The notes under the pieces are model-generated. The model was not told where the DNA came from. It was given only the letters and a program-made list of their open reading frames with translations, and did not search any database. This document shows, piece by piece, positions 5,705-16,535 of a stretch of 55,698 nucleotides of DNA. The position numbers and the translations under genes are program-made. Within the stretch, counting starts at the first letter, position 1. Every line of letters begins with the position of its first letter. Where the stretch lies: NCBI GenBank assembly GCA_038057055.1, contig JBBUDY010000017.1, positions 1 to 55,698 on the forward strand. The letters run 5' to 3'. The DNA comes from Patescibacteria group bacterium. GTDB taxonomy: Bacteria > Patescibacteriota > Minisyncoccia > Phycocordibacterales > Phycocordibacteraceae.

Positions 5705-6766
5705 ATGACCGTCGACAAACGTCTCGAAGAACTCCTTGACTTCGTCATTACTCAAGGCGGTTCGGATTTGCATCTCTTTGCCGGCGGTTCGCCTATGTTG
5801 CGAGTGAGCGGTGCACTTATTCCTATGAGTAAATACCCGGTACTCTCTGCTTCAGAAACAGAGGCAATGTTTAAGAGCATTGTAGAACCAGAGCGATGGG
5901 ATTCGTTCAAGAATAATCAAACTATCGACCTGTCTTATTCACACAAAGAAGGCGAGCGTTTTCGGGTAAATGGGTATCGCGCACAAGGAGCAACGACTAT
6001 TGCATTTCGACGCATACCTTCTGCGATAAAGACTTTCACCGACTTGAATCTCCCTTCAGTGCTTGACGTATTTACCCAGCGCGAACAAGGTTTCTTCCTT
6101 GTTGTAGGACCAGTAGGGCAGGGGAAGTCGACGACACTCGCGACGATGATTGACCGCATCAACGACTCTCGTGCGGAACATATTCTTACCATCGAGGACC
6201 CGGTCGAGTATCTGTTTACGCCGAAACGCTCGCTCATTCATCAGCGTGAAGTGCATATCGATACTCCCGATTTCCACGCGGCGCTCCAGAGTGCGTTTCG
6301 GGAGGATGTGGATGTCATTATGGTAGGGGAGATGCGCGACTATGAGACCATTTCCTCTGCGGTGACCGCCGCAGAGACCGGTCACCTCGTGTTCTCGACG
6401 CTTCACACCAACAATGCCGCGCAAACGATTGATCGCATCATCGATATGTTCCCGGCTGAGCAACAATCGCAAGTGCGCGTGCAACTTGCAGGGAGTCTCG
6501 CGGGCATCTTCTCGCAAAGACTCATCCCACGCATCTCCGGCGGGCTTATTCCTGCATGCGAGCTTCTTATCAATAACAATGCAGTGGGTACGTTGATACG
6601 CGAGGCACGAACGCATGAAATCGGCACGGTGATTCAGACCTCTTCACAAGAAGGGATGATTGATATGGACCGCTCGCTCGCTGATCTCGTGCGCCGGGGA
6701 GAAGTGACAGTCGAACGTGCATTCGAGTATGCGATGGACCCAAAAACTTTTGAGCATTATCTCTAA
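5705..6766 (+). CDS. pilT: Twitching-motility retraction ATPase PilT
   Basis: Walker A GPVGQGKSTT, FREDVDVIMVGEMRD and TGHLVFSTLHTN motifs. About 350 aa, which fits PilT. Confidence 0.92.
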   Translation: MTVDKRLEELLDFVITQGGSDLHLFAGGSPMLRVSGALIPMSKYPVLSASETEAMFKSIVEPERWDSFKNNQTIDLSYSHKEGERFRVNGYRAQGATTIAFRRIPSAIKTFTDLNLPSVLDVFTQREQGFFLVVGPVGQGKSTTLATMIDRINDSRAEHILTIEDPVEYLFTPKRSLIHQREVHIDTPDFHAALQSAFREDVDVIMVGEMRDYETISSAVTAAETGHLVFSTLHTNNAAQTIDRIIDMFPAEQQSQVRVQLAGSLAGIFSQRLIPRISGGLIPACELLINNNAVGTLIREARTHEIGTVIQTSSQEGMIDMDRSLADLVRRGEVTVERAFEYAMDPKTFEHYL

Positions 6767-6768
6767 CT

Positions 6769-7974
6769 ATGCTTTTCAAGTACCACGCGATTGATCAAGA
6801 TGGACACGAACGCGATGGGACCATCGAGGCCTCCTCGAAAGAGATAGCCGTTTCTGCACTACAACGGCGCAGTTTCATTATATCGGCAATCGAATCGGCG
6901 GAGAAAAATCCATTCTTTAGTCTTGAAATTTCATTTTTCGATCGAGTATCCAACAAAGACGTCGTCATTCTCTCGCGCCAAATAGCAACCCTGTTTGAAG
7001 CACAGGTGTCTGCTCTTCGAGTCTTTAGACTTATCGCCACCGAGGTAGAAAACAAGAAACTTGCGGCTGTGCTCTCTACCGTTGGAGACGATATTCAAGG
7101 CGGGAGTCCCATCAGTTCGGCACTCGGGCGTCACCCCAAGGTCTTCACGACCTTTTATGTCAATATGGTGAGGGCTGGCGAAGAGTCAGGAAAACTCTCA
7201 GAAACATTCAATTATCTTGCTGATTATCTCGATCGTTCCTACGAGCTAGTGAGCAAAGCCGAGAATGCACTTATTTACCCGGTTTTCGTTATTGCGGTCT
7301 TTTTCGCCGTGATGGCGCTTATGCTCACGCTCGTTATACCCAAGATTAGTGCAGTTCTCATCGATTCTGGTCAAGAAATACCGGTCTACACCAAGATTGT
7401 CATCGGCTTCTCAAACTTCCTTGTCAATTATGGGATTTTTGTGCTCATCGCGCTTCTCGCGGGAGGGGTGTATGTGTGGCAACTCGGGAAGACCGAGAAA
7501 GGGAGGCTCATACTCGACAGCGTACGACTTTCAATCCCGTATGTCGGGGGACTCTACAAGAAGCTCTATCTTTCGCGTATCTCGGACAATCTCTCTACGA
7601 TGCTCCTTTCTGGCGTTTCAGTTATCGAGGCGTTTGAAATCACCAGTTCGGTGGTGGGTAATGCCGCGTACGCACGTATACTCCATGAAGTTGGTATAGA
7701 CGTAAAGGGCGGGATGTCTATTTCTGATGCGCTCGACCGGCATGCGGAGATTCCGGGAATTATGGTCGCGATGACGAAAGTGGGTGAGGAGACAGGACAA
7801 CTCGGCAAAATCCTCACCACACTCGCGAAGTTCTATAACCGCGAGGTGACGAATGCCGTGGATACCCTGGTCGGGCTTATAGAGCCGATTATGATTGTGC
7901 TCCTCGGTCTTGGTGTTGGCGTATTGCTTGCCGCTGTTCTGCTCCCAATTTATAACCTTGCCGGCTCTATTTAG
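6769..7974 (+). CDS. pilC: Type IV pilus platform protein PilC (GspF family)
   Basis: Two GspF repeats with three TM segments. About 400 aa. Lies immediately after pilT. Confidence 0.9.
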   Translation: MLFKYHAIDQDGHERDGTIEASSKEIAVSALQRRSFIISAIESAEKNPFFSLEISFFDRVSNKDVVILSRQIATLFEAQVSALRVFRLIATEVENKKLAAVLSTVGDDIQGGSPISSALGRHPKVFTTFYVNMVRAGEESGKLSETFNYLADYLDRSYELVSKAENALIYPVFVIAVFFAVMALMLTLVIPKISAVLIDSGQEIPVYTKIVIGFSNFLVNYGIFVLIALLAGGVYVWQLGKTEKGRLILDSVRLSIPYVGGLYKKLYLSRISDNLSTMLLSGVSVIEAFEITSSVVGNAAYARILHEVGIDVKGGMSISDALDRHAEIPGIMVAMTKVGEETGQLGKILTTLAKFYNREVTNAVDTLVGLIEPIMIVLLGLGVGVLLAAVLLPIYNLAGSI

Positions 7975-9112: not shown

Positions 9113-9148
9113 GAAACCCGCGTCCGCCAGTTGGCGGACGCGGGTTTC
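9113..9148 (+). terminator. Strong stem-loop after the pilin genes (intrinsic terminator candidate)
   Basis: GAAACCCGCGTCCGCC-AGTT-GGCGGACGCGGGTTTC forms a 16-bp perfect stem. Confidence 0.65.
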
Positions 9149-9163
9149 TGCTATCATGCGTTT

Positions 9164-9928
9164 ATGTTTCTTCTCGGCTCTATTTTCCTGTTCTTTCTCG
9201 GTGCAATTATCGCGAGCTTTATTGGTGTCGTTGTTGTGCGACTTAATACCGGAGGGAGTTTTCTCACCGGTCATTCCCGCTGTGACGCGTGTACCGTGCC
9301 CCTACTGCCTCTTCAGTTGGTGCCGATTTTTTCGTATCTCGCCTCTGGAGGAAATGCGCACTGTTGCGGCACACGCCTCTCTCCACTCGCCCCTCTTTCA
9401 GAATTTCTTCTCGGTGTACTCTTTGTCCTTGCGTATAACATAATCGGTCTTGTGCATGCGCTCCCGTTTATGCTTGCGGCACTTACCACACTGCTTGCGC
9501 TTGTGCTCTATGATCTGGCACATCAGATACTCCCAACGCCACTTCTTATCGTTTTCATTGTGACAAGTGCGCTTTCTGGCTACCTTCTCGCAGATTCTGT
9601 AGGGGCATTTATAAGCTCGGTCTTTGTTGCACTCATTCTCGCTGGTATTCTCGCAGGTATTCATTTTGTATCGCGAGGTCGTGCAATGGGCTTTGCCGAC
9701 GCACCGTTTGTCTTCGGCTGTGCGCTTCTCGTAGGTCCTGCCGCATTGCCTGGTTTTATTTTTTCGTTTTGGATTGGGGCAGGGATTGGGATAGTCCTGT
9801 TGGTTCGTAGGCCACGAGGCTCTAGAATGGGAGTTGAGGTGCCGTTCGCACCCTTTCTGGCTGCAGGATTTCTCCTCGCGTACTTTACCCAATGGAACCC
9901 TTTTACCGTAATCGAGGCTTTACTCTAA
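9164..9928 (+). CDS. pilD: Prepilin peptidase (A24 family, PilD-like)
   Basis: N-terminal Cys motifs (RCDACTV ... HCCGTRLS). Multi-TM body with Asp motifs (LYDLAH, GFADAP). Start moved to MFLLGS because the ORF-track start lies inside the terminator hairpin. Confidence 0.75.
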   Translation: MFLLGSIFLFFLGAIIASFIGVVVVRLNTGGSFLTGHSRCDACTVPLLPLQLVPIFSYLASGGNAHCCGTRLSPLAPLSEFLLGVLFVLAYNIIGLVHALPFMLAALTTLLALVLYDLAHQILPTPLLIVFIVTSALSGYLLADSVGAFISSVFVALILAGILAGIHFVSRGRAMGFADAPFVFGCALLVGPAALPGFIFSFWIGAGIGIVLLVRRPRGSRMGVEVPFAPFLAAGFLLAYFTQWNPFTVIEALL

Positions 9929-10515
9929 TCGAGATGCTCGTCGTGCTTGGAATCATAGCGGCGGTGACGAGTGTTGCGCTTGCGAGCCAAAGTTCTTTCA
10001 ATAGGACGCTGATACTTGCAAACACAGCATACGACATCGCGCTTACCTTGCGTTCTGCTGAAAACTTCGGGATTGGGAGCCGGGCGATTTCTGGTACCGC
10101 GAACGCAGGATACGGTGTCCATTTCCAGAGAGGGACATCTGATTCGTTCCTACTTTTTGCCGATACGTCGCCTGCAAACAATTTTTCGTGCACCAGACCT
10201 GACTGTAGACCGGGAGACCAGCTCTATTCAATTGACGACACGCTTGTGCAGACCTACACACTTGGGAACAACATCATCGTGAGCAATTTCTGTGTCTTCT
10301 CAGATCGATGGCAATGCGCATCGACCGGCGACGTCAGCTCTCTTGATATCGTGTTTGCACGTCCTAATCCGGATGCATCCATACGGACAGATGGTTCGTC
10401 GTATAGTTCTTATACGGCGGCATGTCTTGTTATCAGTTCAGATAGGGGAGGGTTCCGTTTCGTTTCGGTTGAAGCGTCTGGTCAAATAATCCCAGCAGCC
10501 TCTTCATGCCCATAA
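9892..10515 (+). CDS. Prepilin-type minor pilin/pseudopilin
   Basis: Leader MEPFYRNRG then FTLIEMLVVLGIIAAV. Confidence 0.75.
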   Translation: MEPFYRNRGFTLIEMLVVLGIIAAVTSVALASQSSFNRTLILANTAYDIALTLRSAENFGIGSRAISGTANAGYGVHFQRGTSDSFLLFADTSPANNFSCTRPDCRPGDQLYSIDDTLVQTYTLGNNIIVSNFCVFSDRWQCASTGDVSSLDIVFARPNPDASIRTDGSSYSSYTAACLVISSDRGGFRFVSVEASGQIIPAASSCP

Positions 10516-10517
10516 AT

Positions 10518-11969
10518 ATGGAAGCACGAAGCACGAAGCACGAAGCACGAAACGGATACACGCTCATTGAACTCGTTGTTGCAGTTGGGCTGTTTGCATT
10601 GGTCATGACGCTCGCTTCAGGTGCTTACCTCCTCATGATTGACCTCAATCGACAGGCACAGGGTATTGCCACGGGTGTTGATAATCTCTCCTTCGCACTC
10701 GAGACTATGACGCGCAGTATCCGTACCGGTACCGCGTATAGGTGTGGGACCTTGGGAAGTGAGGGTGATTGTCCGGGCGGCGCAAATAGTTTTTCCTTCA
10801 CCGATGCGAGCGGCGCGGACATTACCTACGCACATGGTTTCCAGGCTGACGAGGTGACGGGTGCTATCGTCAAAAATGGCACGATAATTCTCACTGATCC
10901 GTCAGTATCCGTTTCTTCTCTCATGTTTTACGTTTCAGGAACGGCGACGGTCGCTTCTGCCGATTTTGCTCAGCCGTATGTGACCATCATCATTTCGGGT
11001 ACCGTTTCTTCTGGCCCTCGGAAGACTCCCCAAGTCTTTACGGTCGAGACTGGTGCCACCATGCGTGGTATCGACCTCAACATCGCATCAGCGCCGTCTG
11101 AAGACATCCCAACTCCCACGTGCACACTCTCAGCTGATTCTGCCTTTGTTCTACCAGGCGGTTTGCCCAAATTATCTTGGACAACCAGATTCTCAGATTC
11201 AATTTCAATTGATCAAGGTATAGGACCGGTCTCACCAGCCTTTTATGGTTCGGAGGACGCCACTACTCCACTCGCCACCACCACCACCTACACCGCCACC
11301 GCGACAAACAGTGCGGGAGGGTCGGCAACCTGTAGTGCAACGGTGTCGGTATCGGGAGTCGGTTCCTGCTCGGCAACTCACTTCGGTTGTATCAGCGGAA
11401 CTTCCGCTAACAATGTAGAGGACACTAATGTGTGGACGTGGACGTGTACTGGTGCAAATGGTGGCACGACCGTCTCGTGTTCAGAGGAGAAACCGACCAA
11501 TCTGAGCGGCTACGCGTGGTCTCCCCTCATTGGTTGGATTAGTTTCAGCGGTCCCAATTATGGCGTATTAGAAAACAAGACCACCGGAGCGTTGTATGGA
11601 TACGCATGGTCCTCACGTATCGGCTGGATTAGTTTTAATGCATCTGATGGAACGCATACAGCACCGCGCGTTGATTTCACCACGGGGAACATTTCTGGTT
11701 GGGCACGCGCCTGTGCGGCATTCGCTGATAAAACTACGTGCAGTGAACCGCTTGATAGCAAGAGTGGTGGTTGGGATGGCTGGATTGCTCTCTCGGGTAT
11801 TGCTCAAGATGGCTCAAGGTATGGCATTACTCAGAGTTCGACATGTGAATGGACTGGATTTGCATGGGGCTCTACAGGTATTGGCGCGATCAGTGTGCGC
11901 GGCACCGCTGCCGACTATTCTACCTATGGAGTGACCGGAGATGATCCAGCCGCGTGCGCTCCCCACTAA
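10518..11969 (+). CDS. Large prepilin-type minor pilin (candidate tip adhesin) with Ig-like segment and Trp-rich C-terminal repeats
   Basis: Leader MEARSTKHEARNG then YTLIELVVAVGLFALV. C-terminal units GYAWSPLIGWISF, GYAWSSRIGWISF and GFAWGSTGIGAIS. Confidence 0.7.
   Translation: MEARSTKHEARNGYTLIELVVAVGLFALVMTLASGAYLLMIDLNRQAQGIATGVDNLSFALETMTRSIRTGTAYRCGTLGSEGDCPGGANSFSFTDASGADITYAHGFQADEVTGAIVKNGTIILTDPSVSVSSLMFYVSGTATVASADFAQPYVTIIISGTVSSGPRKTPQVFTVETGATMRGIDLNIASAPSEDIPTPTCTLSADSAFVLPGGLPKLSWTTRFSDSISIDQGIGPVSPAFYGSEDATTPLATTTTYTATATNSAGGSATCSATVSVSGVGSCSATHFGCISGTSANNVEDTNVWTWTCTGANGGTTVSCSEEKPTNLSGYAWSPLIGWISFSGPNYGVLENKTTGALYGYAWSSRIGWISFNASDGTHTAPRVDFTTGNISGWARACAAFADKTTCSEPLDSKSGGWDGWIALSGIAQDGSRYGITQSSTCEWTGFAWGSTGIGAISVRGTAADYSTYGVTGDDPAACAPH
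10521..10551 (+). repeat. Heptanucleotide tandem repeat (GAAGCAC) x4 plus a partial copy, inside the leader-peptide codons
   Basis: Perfect copies at 10521, 10528, 10535 and 10542, then GAA. Confidence 0.95.
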
Positions 11970-11994: not shown

Positions 11995-13401
11995 ATGAAC
12001 CTGCGTCGTTTCTTCTCATACTCTTTGGTTGCAGTGGGAGCTCTGATTCTCTCGGCTGGTCTTCAAGTGTACGCTTTTTCAGAACCGAATACGGCCCCTC
12101 CAAACGCCGATGTTGACGCCCCTTTAACCACCGGTGCGACCGAGCAATCAAAGAGTGGCGGTCTGATTCTTAATACTGGCGGTTCCACAAACGGTCTCAT
12201 TGTACAATCCGGTAACGTTGGTGTTGGGACAACAAGCCCCACCGCGCTTCTTGGCATACAAGGAGCGATAGGTGTTAACAGCTCACAACTCTATCTCGCG
12301 GCGAACGGCAAGGTTGGTATCGGAACGACAGTGACGTCGAATAACGAACACACCATTATATATTTGCCAAACAATAAGGATTTGGCTGGTGTTAATTCTG
12401 GGGGAGCTGCGGCTTTTCCGCTTATAGGTATGGGTAGTTCCGATAAGATAACCATTGACCGAGATGCGCTCGGCTCTACATTTGGTGGCAACGTCGGTAT
12501 CGGGACGACCGTGGCGAATGACAAATTAGATGTAGCAGGAAGGATAAGAATTTCAACAAATGCAACTTCTCCAGGGACGAACATAGCATCGATATATAGA
12601 GGAGCAGCGACGGGGCTGACTCTTACCGGAAACACAGCCTCTACGTACTCTTGGGATTTGGTAAATAATTTAGGAAATGATGTGTTATTTAACCCTGTGG
12701 GAACAACCGTAGCGTCATTCGGTGGCAGTGTTGGCATCGGGACGGTAGCACCAGACTTTAAACTCGATGTGTATGGCGCCCTTGGTGCACTCAGGTTGAA
12801 TAATCCTTCCGGAGATTTGGATACTCATCTACAAGTGAAGGATTATCTCTGGCGGCTCATTGTTGGCGGTACCGGTACGAGTTATGGGGTCGGTGCAGGT
12901 GGACTCGGTTTTACCTCTGGCGGTACCTATGCACTGAAACTGTTAGGCAACTATGTCACTGTCCCTTATTCGCTCGGTGTCGGGATGGCGAATAATCCAG
13001 GAACGTATACATTAGCGGTAACCGGCGATGCGTGGGTAACGAGTGGCGCATGGTCGGGATCGGATCTGCGCTGGAAGAAAAACATTCAACCGATAACCGG
13101 TGCTCTAGATACAGTTATGCAACTCTCTGGAGTCTCTTATCTTTGGAGAAAGGATGAATTTCCACAGAATAATTTTGACGACAAAGCCCACTTTGGATTG
13201 ATTGCTCAAGACGTGGAGAAGATAGTACCTGAACTGGTTACAACTGGACCGGATGGCTATAAGGGTATTGATTACAATGGACTCGCGCCCCTGCTTATTG
13301 GGTCTACGCAAGAACTACAGAGAATCATTATGAATCAGCAAAATGAAATAGAAGAGTTGAAGGCAAGAGTGTCTGATTTGGAGAATAAGATGCTGAAGTA
13401 A
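11995..13401 (+). CDS. Secreted tail-fibre-like protein with C-terminal S74 intramolecular-chaperone (endosialidase chaperone) domain
   Basis: Signal/TM segment MNLRRFFSYSLVAVGALILSAG. Repeated G(N/K/S)VG(I/V)GT motifs. C-terminus SDLRWKKNIQP...YLWRKDE...HFGLIAQDVEKIVPELV...IDYNGLAPLLIGSTQEL plus a coiled coil matches the S74 pattern. Confidence 0.8.
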   Translation: MNLRRFFSYSLVAVGALILSAGLQVYAFSEPNTAPPNADVDAPLTTGATEQSKSGGLILNTGGSTNGLIVQSGNVGVGTTSPTALLGIQGAIGVNSSQLYLAANGKVGIGTTVTSNNEHTIIYLPNNKDLAGVNSGGAAAFPLIGMGSSDKITIDRDALGSTFGGNVGIGTTVANDKLDVAGRIRISTNATSPGTNIASIYRGAATGLTLTGNTASTYSWDLVNNLGNDVLFNPVGTTVASFGGSVGIGTVAPDFKLDVYGALGALRLNNPSGDLDTHLQVKDYLWRLIVGGTGTSYGVGAGGLGFTSGGTYALKLLGNYVTVPYSLGVGMANNPGTYTLAVTGDAWVTSGAWSGSDLRWKKNIQPITGALDTVMQLSGVSYLWRKDEFPQNNFDDKAHFGLIAQDVEKIVPELVTTGPDGYKGIDYNGLAPLLIGSTQELQRIIMNQQNEIEELKARVSDLENKMLK

Positions 13402-14014
13402 TGCAGGCTACAATGCAATCTTCTCGTGCCGGGTTCACGCTTATTGAGACCATGGTTGCGATAACCATACTTACGTTTGCAATGGCAGGACCTATGTTTA
13501 CCGCCAGTCGTGCCATTGTTGCGGCACAGACCGCACGCGACCAACTCACTGCCATCTATCTTGCTCAAGAAGGTATCGAACGTGTGCGTGCGATGCGTGA
13601 TAATGCATATTTGGCCGCGTATCATACGGGTGGTGCAGATATCTCGAGCACTGCGTGGAGTGATTTTCTCACCGGGTCAGGTTCCGCATCGATTTCTAGA
13701 TGCATCACATCAAATGACGCACCAAACGCCTGCACGCTCGATTCAGTGGGGGATGGGTCTCTCGAACAATGTATAGCTGCTGATTCCTGTGAACCGTTGT
13801 ACCTTACCGGGTGTACGAATGGTCCAGAGGGGCTCTCCTGTACGCCGCCGAATATGTATACACAGCGCGATCTCCCTGGGAGCGTACTCTCGCCCTTTGT
13901 CCGCACGATCCAAGCGACTATCATTACTCCACATGAAGTAAAAATAGTTTCGACCGTCTCATGGACGTACCACAACACGCCGTATTCTGTGATGGTCTCG
14001 GACCATCTTTCTTC

Positions 14015-14024
<10 letters not shown>
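13401..14024 (+). CDS. Prepilin-type minor pilin
   Basis: Leader MQATMQSSRAG then FTLIETMVAITILT. The ATG overlaps the previous stop (TAATG). Confidence 0.75.

Positions 14025-16535
<2,511 letters not shown>

Follow-up and report, generated by a model that had tools for sequence, protein, structure and literature searches.

A frame-locked heptanucleotide tract in the leader of a type IV minor pilin gene of a Patescibacteria group bacterium, a candidate phase-variation site

Genes for variable surface proteins are a classical target of phase variation. In Neisseria, a poly-G tract lies in the signal-peptide-coding region of pilC1 and pilC2; the OFF state abolishes a pilus-associated adhesin, and the switching has been demonstrated experimentally. 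The opa genes of Neisseria carry (CTCTT)n in the region encoding the signal peptide (PMC5953494). Heptanucleotide phase variation is documented in Haemophilus influenzae, where TGAAAGA repeats lie upstream of hmw1A and hmw2A, and AACAACC repeats in or near a TonB-dependent receptor gene (PMC2651432). Over-represented heptameric repeats, an observation of Mrazek from 2007, include GGGAATC in Xanthomonas and GGGGAYT in Nostoc (PMC4692102), and Beggiatoa has the heptameric repeat TAACTGA (PMC4679880). Here, we analysed a stretch of 55,698 nt (contig JBBUDY010000017.1 of assembly GCA_038057055.1, Patescibacteria group bacterium; hereafter the window), in which a heptanucleotide tract stands directly behind the start codon of a gene for a 483-aa minor pilin.

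Bacteria within the Candidate Phyla Radiation (CPR) are ultrasmall episymbionts. Homologues of this pilin are named Candidatus Kaiserbacteria or Paceibacterota, and the samples with the locus are groundwater. In cultivated CPR bacteria, type IV pili are reported to mediate host attachment and motility and probably DNA uptake (PMC11623550). Literature searches returned no account of CPR phase variation driven by repeats. The features at the beginning of the pilin gene are as follows.

10521..10551, forward strand: perfect heptanucleotide tract, (GAAGCAC)x4 plus GAA, identical in L002, L003 and L004
10518..10520, forward strand: likely start codon ATG, 2 nt past the TAA of the upstream gene
10518..10556, forward strand: segment coding for the leader peptide MEARSTKHEARNG, predicted to be cut by prepilin peptidase after G13
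10554..10574, forward strand: prepilin cleavage/methylation motif G/YTLIEL (the slash marks the cut) with Glu at +5 (PF07963, TIGR02532)
10518..11969, forward strand: 483-aa modular minor pilin with a pilin domain, an Ig-like domain and a C-terminal GYAWSxxIGWISF-repeat module

Positions 10518-10574 consist of ATG, four GAAGCAC units, GAA and AC GGA TAC ACG CTC ATT GAA CTC, and their translation is MEARSTKHEARNG/YTLIEL, the repeat beginning directly after the ATG and ending upstream of the G/YTLIEL codons. Tandem Repeats Finder returned period 7, 4.4 copies and 100% matches for 10521-10551. The longest period-7 tract measured 31 nt, compared with a maximum of 19 nt in 100 first-order Markov simulations, and a two-unit pattern expected 0.06 times in shuffled sequence was found three times, every time inside this tract. 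The window contains no other long simple repeat. These results confirmed that the tract lies far beyond chance and is a real feature of the sequence. The second-longest simple repeat of the window, an in-frame (CCA)x4.7 at 11275-11288, encodes a run of Thr (TTTT) within the Ig-like part of the pilin.

Simulation of the unit number showed that the full protein was obtained with 1, 4 or 7 units (476, 483 and 490 aa, respectively), whereas 0, 2, 3, 5, 6 or 8 units gave peptides of 12-34 aa. The tract is a perfect repeat near the 5' end of an open reading frame (ORF), its unit is not divisible by three, and a change in unit number exchanges a full-length for a truncated product in silico. With four full units it also passes the customary in-silico cut-off for phase-variable repeats, at least three copies for units of 6-9 nt (PMC5953494), which is a convention and not a measured slip rate. 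With high confidence, we regard the tract as a slippage microsatellite in which the reading frame fixes the number of copies. The original prediction had placed four perfect GAAGCAC units plus GAA right after the ATG, with a G/YTLIEL prepilin cleavage motif downstream, and had held that gain or loss of a unit would shift the frame and abolish the 483-aa product; the repeat analysis and simulations, the family matches and the frame arithmetic bore out all three.

The encoded N-terminus, MEARSTKHEARNG/YTLIELVVAVGLFALV, has the make-up of a class III signal peptide, namely a short charged leader ending in Gly, a hydrophobic helix and Glu at +5. By the class III signal-peptide rule, the leader would be removed by prepilin peptidase. 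The PF07963 (N_methyl) match scored 23.8 bits against a cut-off of 21.2 and the TIGR02532 match 20.8 against 16.3, both spanning residues 11-33, and the G/YTLIEL motif is invariant among 18 homologues. In orthologues, the gene start is an ATGA stop/start overlap with the upstream gene at the equivalent place. At 10506-10520 of the window, the ATG of that overlap is now ATA (CCCATAA), and the start has shifted 3 nt downstream to 10518. Another ATG in the same frame lies at 10506-10508, upstream of the tract, and no Shine-Dalgarno-like sequence precedes 10518.

We propose that the tract is an adaptive ON/OFF switch, a reading that we hold tentatively and rate a little short of even. A slippage microsatellite would have settled in a leader that prepilin peptidase cuts off, where extra codons would cost nothing. 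Since the unit has 7 nt, the frame would be kept with only 1, 4 or 7 units, and selection for an intact pilin would lock the visible count at four. When a replication slip removed or added one unit, a 27-aa or 19-aa peptide, respectively, would be made and no pilin (OFF), and a second slip would restore the pilin (ON). The outcome would be a low-frequency, reversible translational switch of a tip-located modular minor pilin, with further members of the set in other minor-pilin genes of Kaiserbacteria-like CPR bacteria, and OFF cells could profit, for example, by escaping pilus-specific phage or attachment. The switch as we infer it would slip at a useful rate today, give OFF cells an advantage, act at the pilus tip and be polar on downstream genes. 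The gene product, a surface pilus subunit with a C-terminal module that varies among relatives, counts in its favour. Thus, the tract is a real slippage microsatellite, while its role as a phase-variation site is plausible but unproven.

We investigated where heptamers occur among related loci. A profile search yielded 80 orthologous loci from groundwater and sediment metagenomes; together with L001 they form a repeat survey set of 218 kb, or 273 kb and 82 loci with the window included. Perfect repeats of period 4 or more and at least 2.5 copies were counted, with period 6 excluded from the totals. The results showed 51 tracts of period 7 and one of period 4, so that 51 of the 52 repeats were heptamers, and none of period 5 or 8-12 in the 273 kb. 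Mapping against prepilin cleavage motifs placed one or two heptamer tracts in each of 35 leaders, and eight of the nine remaining tracts precede a variant cleavage motif of a PilX-like gene; the sole tract outside prepilin leaders is an 18-nt one upstream of ligA in L125. Heptamer tracts are, family-wide, restricted to prepilin leaders. The affected genes are three paralogous minor pilins, the orthologue of the window gene, a PilV-like and a PilX-like gene. The recurrence of 7-mer tracts near the 5' ends of surface-protein genes, which the original prediction had proposed to look for, was found in the prepilin leaders of relatives.

About 19 unrelated unit families occupy the equivalent leader position, among them AAGCACG, AAGCACC, TCTCCAG, CTGGAAG, AAATTCC, AATTTTC, TTTCGGA, CTTACAC, CAAGGTT, ACCTACA, ACTGCCA, CAGCAAG and GACATCC, and the copy number ranges from 2.6 to 5.0, mostly near four. 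One locus, L150, carries three different tracts in three genes, which together with the many unit families at one position argues for repeated origin. In the window and in L207 (21.5 kb), period-7 tracts occur solely in the leader of this gene and are also the top-scoring short-period repeats. Of the prepilin leaders detected in these loci, about 80% have no tract and are plain, with a length of about 8 aa. We consider it rather unlikely that heptamers, single or in hairpin-forming pairs, are maintained specifically in the class III leaders of all three minor pilins of Kaiserbacteria-like CPR to give a combinatorial ON/OFF or graded display of tip subunits and adhesin modules.

The distribution also bears on the explanation that the tract is a tolerated by-product, in which a general slippage bias towards heptamers acts on the cleaved leader, one of few coding sites that would tolerate an in-frame gain of 21 nt, the tract is stable at four units, OFF slips are deleterious and no regulation is involved. 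We regard this as possible, on the doubtful side. Heptamers are over-represented among bacterial repeats generally (PMC4692102), and (AAGCACN)n occurs in many phyla, including as in-frame insertions in ORFs of other CPR bacteria. Yet if tolerance were the whole cause, non-coding DNA should have no fewer tracts than leaders, and the stretches outside any long open frame, at least 5 kb of the data set, contain one short tract out of about 53; nor is there any elsewhere in the 77 kb of the two genomes. The leader-restricted distribution therefore makes insertion tolerance alone an insufficient explanation.

Outside the family, a scan of a genome collection for (AAGCACN)3 returned more than 120 loci in unrelated phyla; none of its 139 tracts lay in a pilin leader, and the scan serves as background only. 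A search of metagenome contigs for the anchored pattern AAGCACGAAACGGNTAYACNYTNATHGA gave no match. Heptamer tracts were also seen as in-frame insertions in non-pilin ORFs of L036 (Peribacteria) and L070 (Beckwithbacteria).

The leaders of relatives also contain insertions of another kind, about 90 nt long with terminal inverted repeats of 12-21 nt, which coincide exactly with the codons of the prepilin cleavage site. A duplicated GGNTAYAC stands on either side (peptide RGYT...GYTLIEL), the frame is kept open, and such an insertion resembles a miniature transposable element. They are located as follows.

L145 and L146, about 1400-1510: ~90-nt hairpin insertion
L185, about 1430-1535: ~90-nt hairpin insertion
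L189, about 1445-1550: ~90-nt hairpin insertion
L194, about 65-170: ~90-nt hairpin insertion

Taken together, the tracts and these insertions indicate that the leader-coding segment is a general hot spot for in-frame insertions. Such a hot spot lends weight to a tolerated by-product, because a site that also takes unrelated hairpins shows general tolerance, and it likewise feeds the view, discussed below, that leader insertions tune expression.

To return to the switch, we compared homologues for changes in unit number. In L001, whose protein is 66% identical, the gene begins ATG A AAGCACC AAGCACC AAGCACC AAGCACG AAAC GGA. Tract position and unit count equal those of the window, and every unit except the last has C at its seventh base where the window has G. 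Three parallel G-to-C substitutions are very unlikely, which argues for concerted evolution in L001. The 66-nt leaders of L158 gene 3 and L183 contain 1.3 copies of the unit CTTACAC and the 87-nt leaders of L165 and L190 contain 4.3, a difference of exactly three units, or 21 nt. Leaders with tracts cluster at 15, 22 and 29 aa, compared with about 8 aa without a tract, and the step of 7 aa corresponds to 21 nt or three heptamers. L196 has a period of 14 nt, (ACCTACAACTTACA)x2.2, the mark of a two-unit slip. Non-repeat versions are also present, such as the plain leader MRNKMARG of L208, the closest full-length relative, and in L142, L188 and L158 the equivalent place is taken by four heptamers that have diverged.

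Comparison of homologues thus showed gain, loss and homogenisation of units over evolution, as reconstructed from their sequences. Because homogenisation by single-unit slips must pass through out-of-frame states, frameshifted alleles have arisen repeatedly in the history of these genes. Change of units in concert, as in L001, and perfect purity across lineages with near-saturated synonymous sites both speak against a mere by-product. One apparent pair of length variants, L171 and L175, was rejected, since they differ by a 5-nt intergenic indel unrelated to the heptamers.

Not all differences among leaders need have grown in place. Two loci differ in the leader alone, their flanks being 100% identical for 127 nt ahead of it and for more than 115 nt behind it; the leader is 18 nt in L205 (MKDKKTRG) and 102 nt with two tracts in L126; the difference of 84 nt equals 12 heptamers.

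L205, 1163-1190, and L126, 1399-1506 (also L207, 9687-9795): swapped-leader pair

A third leader, MKKRRTNG (P0130), belongs to the same 90% protein cluster as this pair. The pair is consistent with arrival of the tract as a ready-made leader cassette, through recombination or transformation between pilin genes or on a small dispersed element. Near-identical paralogous leaders within one genome (L165, L195, L157) fit such exchange, as does an identical 28-nt tract in genes that are 69-75% identical over the first 180 nt of mature-coding sequence. So do the occurrence of (GAAGCAC)4 within a dispersed element of an unrelated groundwater alphaproteobacterium and the abundance of the tract's 31-mer in other organisms of the same samples. 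On the other hand, the window tract has neither a target-site duplication nor terminal repeats at its borders, and the three genes of L150 have three different units. Cassette arrival would also explain spread, not origin or function, and can be combined with any other reading; we consider it improbable as the explanation of the tract. The dispersed element, with shared flanks, was seen in L013, L060 and L075 (Alphaproteobacteria bacterium RIFCSPLOWO2_01_FULL_40_26, groundwater), and one of its copies in the alphaproteobacterium forms a perfect hairpin with (TTCGTGC)4.

We next turn to the evidence that weighs against an active switch, beginning within the species. Four units were present in all four assemblies (the window, L002, L003 and L004), which are near-identical strains assembled independently, one of them from long reads; the repeat number did not differ among them. 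The genome occurs in Hainich groundwater metagenomes (wells H52, H51 and H43) at a depth of 6-41x. The locus was present in 16 public runs, viewed as Logan contigs, from which rare variants are dropped; no RNA run was listed. In the contigs of nine runs (released 2019-2025), no indel relative to four units was found, which excludes only common other alleles. The 90%-identity protein cluster of the pilin has six members, four of them of 483 or 487 aa, and none is of the frameshift type. The short members P0123 and P0125 were rejected as phase variants, because they come from an indel-filled long-read contig in which the tract has four units. That contig, in L002 (ENA contig_5194, 59 kb), has frameshifts in nearly every gene and seeds public protein collections with these fragments, which could be mistaken for phase variants.

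The Logan contigs break at the tract because its 31-mer is shared with other, more abundant organisms. In run X5, this genome contributes about 33 and another contig about 32 to the 31-mer depth of 65, and runs with partial word sharing (X11, X12, X15) do not have this genome at the locus. An assembly artefact, suggested by a tract length equal to k = 31, was rejected, as SPAdes-type and long-read assemblies agree and the 31-mer depth is that of two genomes summed. Within the groundwater samples (runs X1-X15), the 31-mer, AAGCAC(GAAGCAC)3GAAA (window 10522-10552), was 2 to about 50 times as deep as this genome. Other groundwater organisms have it in other contexts, sometimes followed by a second heptamer tract such as AAATTCA.

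Comparison between species weighs in the same direction. Among about 40 distinct tract-bearing leaders of homologous loci, none is an OFF allele, and every one has an in-frame ATG upstream of the tract. Cost-free random switching would leave about one third ON, so leaders that are all in frame speak against it. A 418-aa protein, P0143, was rejected as an OFF allele; its start is mis-called and its tract is intact. An exact look-up of the upstream protein, meant to reach OFF alleles through the neighbouring gene, gave no record. The copy number does not exceed 5.0, compared with 6-38 units in proven heptamer switches, and a tract of four units may slip only very rarely. Because minor pilins prime pilus assembly, the OFF state may simply be deleterious.

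Length and sequence are also held more tightly than free turnover would suggest. Four units are kept across group A (the window, L001, L148, L169 and, with decayed tracts, L158, L142 and L188), and no seven-unit allele was seen. The decayed tracts of L158, L142, L188, L196 and L197 retain the four-unit length, which means that the added leader length outlasts the purity of the repeat. The window, L148 and L169 share one identical 28-nt tract, although third codon positions of the adjoining, highly conserved helix-coding segment are only 42-55% identical. This hints at constraint on the unit or at exchange of leader cassettes, not free turnover; each base of the heptamer takes codon positions 1, 2 and 3 in turn, which would constrain the unit. 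In-frame alleles with at most five units, invariance within the species and decayed tracts of unchanged length are also what a tolerated by-product would leave.

The claim of a candidate phase-variation switch was therefore upheld in part. Its anatomy, its frame logic, the leader-specific recurrence and the gain and loss of units stood, but the length variants that the original prediction had proposed to look for did not appear in the four assemblies, the contigs of nine runs or the protein cluster, and no OFF allele came to light. Comparison of copy number across relatives revealed units gained, lost and homogenised, yet every tract-bearing leader was in frame with at most five units. The four units kept in decayed repeats (L158, L142, L188) come close to the outcome that had been named in advance as speaking against a switch.

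The conserved length and sequence of the tract are also relevant to the explanation that the leader insertion tunes expression or processing, which we consider unlikely. The tract could act as an unstructured A/C-rich stretch after a start codon that lacks a Shine-Dalgarno sequence; or translation initiation, membrane insertion or the speed of prepilin peptidase cleavage could depend on the leader length (8, 15, 22 or 29 aa). In relatives, complementary tract pairs would form a translation-damping hairpin. In favour, even decayed tracts keep the length of four units, conservation of the tract sequence exceeds that of synonymous sites, and, as noted, no Shine-Dalgarno-like sequence precedes 10518. 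Folding predicted the window tract to be unstructured (z = +0.69), as are the single tracts of L138 and L173. A hairpin role for the window tract itself was rejected on this value; the tract has no complementary partner. Where a leader has two tracts, one is an imperfect reverse complement of the other, with one or two mismatches in each unit, and long hairpins were predicted in the following loci.

L126, 1399-1506: two-tract hairpin, -53.8 kcal/mol, z = -6.8
L148, 1501-1590: two-tract hairpin, z = -4.6
L165, 772-861: two-tract hairpin, z = -3.0
L161, 977-1063: two-tract hairpin, z = -2.9
L188, 823-918: two-tract hairpin, z = -2.7

The two-tract leaders of L150, L157, L195 and L158, however, gave no significant fold. 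Units unrelated between lineages preclude a common binding site, a period of 7 has no obvious RNA or peptide meaning, and the tract-free majority of leaders likewise stands against a tuning role.

We also characterised the gene product and its operon. An AlphaFold (AF2) model built with 46 homologues showed a long N-terminal helix (residues 15-69) packed onto a sheet that reaches residue 181, with pLDDT mostly 73-92, and an Ig-like sandwich at 200-280 with pLDDT of about 95; the C-terminal third, containing the GYAWSxxIGWISF repeats, was unmodelled. This module covers window 11500-11969, residues ~325-483, and its repeats also occur in hundreds of stand-alone Sec-secreted CPR proteins. In orthologues, the C-terminal module differs, some having Ig plus GYAWS repeats, some propeller-like DAMTSPDGITWTS repeats, some a Gly-rich domain and some no module, indicating that the tip module is swapped between lineages. 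A Foldseek comparison of the structure with the PDB gave generic Ig-like matches only (TM <0.2), and a sequence search of the PDB gave no match. As these searches were uninformative, the label of adhesin comes from architecture alone and is kept as putative. From position and architecture, it is a fair inference that the protein is a modular minor pilin of the tip/priming complex. The surrounding genes are listed below.

5705-6766: PilT, pilus assembly
6769-7974: PilC, pilus assembly
In the same neighbourhood: two major-pilin candidates
9131..9928, forward strand: prepilin peptidase (PilD; PF06750, PF01478)
9892..10515, forward strand: GspH/FimU-like minor pilin, upstream, with its stop 2 nt before ATG 10518
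11995..13401, forward strand: secreted protein with a signal peptide and a C-terminal Peptidase_S74 chaperone domain, downstream of the pilin
13401..14024, forward strand: PilV/GspI-like minor pilin, no tract in the window, heptamer tracts in the leaders of orthologues elsewhere
14015..14512, forward strand: PilX/GspK-like minor pilin, no tract in the window, tracts in orthologues elsewhere

The gene thus lies, as the original prediction had it, in a pilus gene cluster, specifically in a minor-pilin operon next to PilD, with assembly genes nearby and four further prepilin-type genes in the neighbourhood. LigA, GatC and GatA come after the PilX-like gene, and the gene order of the operon is shared with L207. 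Because the upstream stop is only 2 nt before ATG 10518, translational coupling of the GspH/FimU-like gene with the 483-aa pilin gene is likely. The gene at 11995..13401 would be affected if OFF states were polar. Its Peptidase_S74 domain, an intramolecular chaperone of the endosialidase/tail-fibre type, is found here inside a minor-pilin operon, and the protein occupies the slot expected for a PilY1-type tip protein.

If leader repeats do switch minor pilins, uncultured groundwater symbionts would share the bet-hedging logic of Neisseria and Haemophilus, in a different class of signal peptide and with heptamers alone. No earlier case of phase variation based on repeats would then precede it in the CPR, nor any in prepilin leaders. 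Even without switching, the locus is a clean natural example of frame constraint quantising microsatellite evolution, in leader steps of 21 nt and with four units held across lineages with near-saturated synonymous sites, and it flags prepilin leaders as insertion hot spots.

Among the described systems, Neisseria opa is similar in that a repeat whose unit is not a multiple of three lies within the part of the ORF encoding a cleaved N-terminal signal, that in-frame counts leave the mature protein unaffected while other counts truncate it, and that several paralogous surface-protein genes per genome carry the repeat. The opa unit, however, has 5 nt in 5-24 copies, compared with 7 nt in at most five copies in the window and its relatives; opa isolates routinely mix ON and OFF, whereas all alleles here, known from sequences alone, are ON; and the opa signal peptide is of the Sec type, in contrast to the class III (prepilin) leader. 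In Neisseria pilC, too, the segment coding for the leader of a type IV pilus tip/assembly factor contains a slippage tract, but the tract is a homopolymer and PilC is a PilY1-type non-pilin with a Sec signal.

In H. influenzae, units are also of 7 nt and at surface adhesin or receptor genes, and in one Haemophilus case the repeat is intra-ORF, so that a frameshift truncates the product. The Haemophilus repeats are mostly located in promoters and act on transcription, with 6-38 copies that vary between strains, whereas the present tract is intragenic, with four copies that are invariant between strains. With the environmental heptamers of Xanthomonas, Nostoc and Beggiatoa, the leader tracts share an exclusive period of 7, lineage-specific units, inverted pairs capable of forming stem-loops and a proposed origin by polymerase slippage. 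Those repeats are intergenic or in 5' untranslated regions, genome-wide, at tens to hundreds per genome, unlike the tracts described here, which lie within coding sequence, are frame-locked and are confined to prepilin leaders. The tract accordingly shares the tandem 7-nt unit of the Mrazek-type or cyanobacterial short tandemly repeated repetitive (STRR) class, but not its non-coding, genome-wide occurrence, being the sole tract in 55.7 kb, as is that in the 21.5 kb of L207. The locus differs from every described case in its prepilin leader host, its exclusive use of heptamers, its narrow copy number and its complementary tract pairs.

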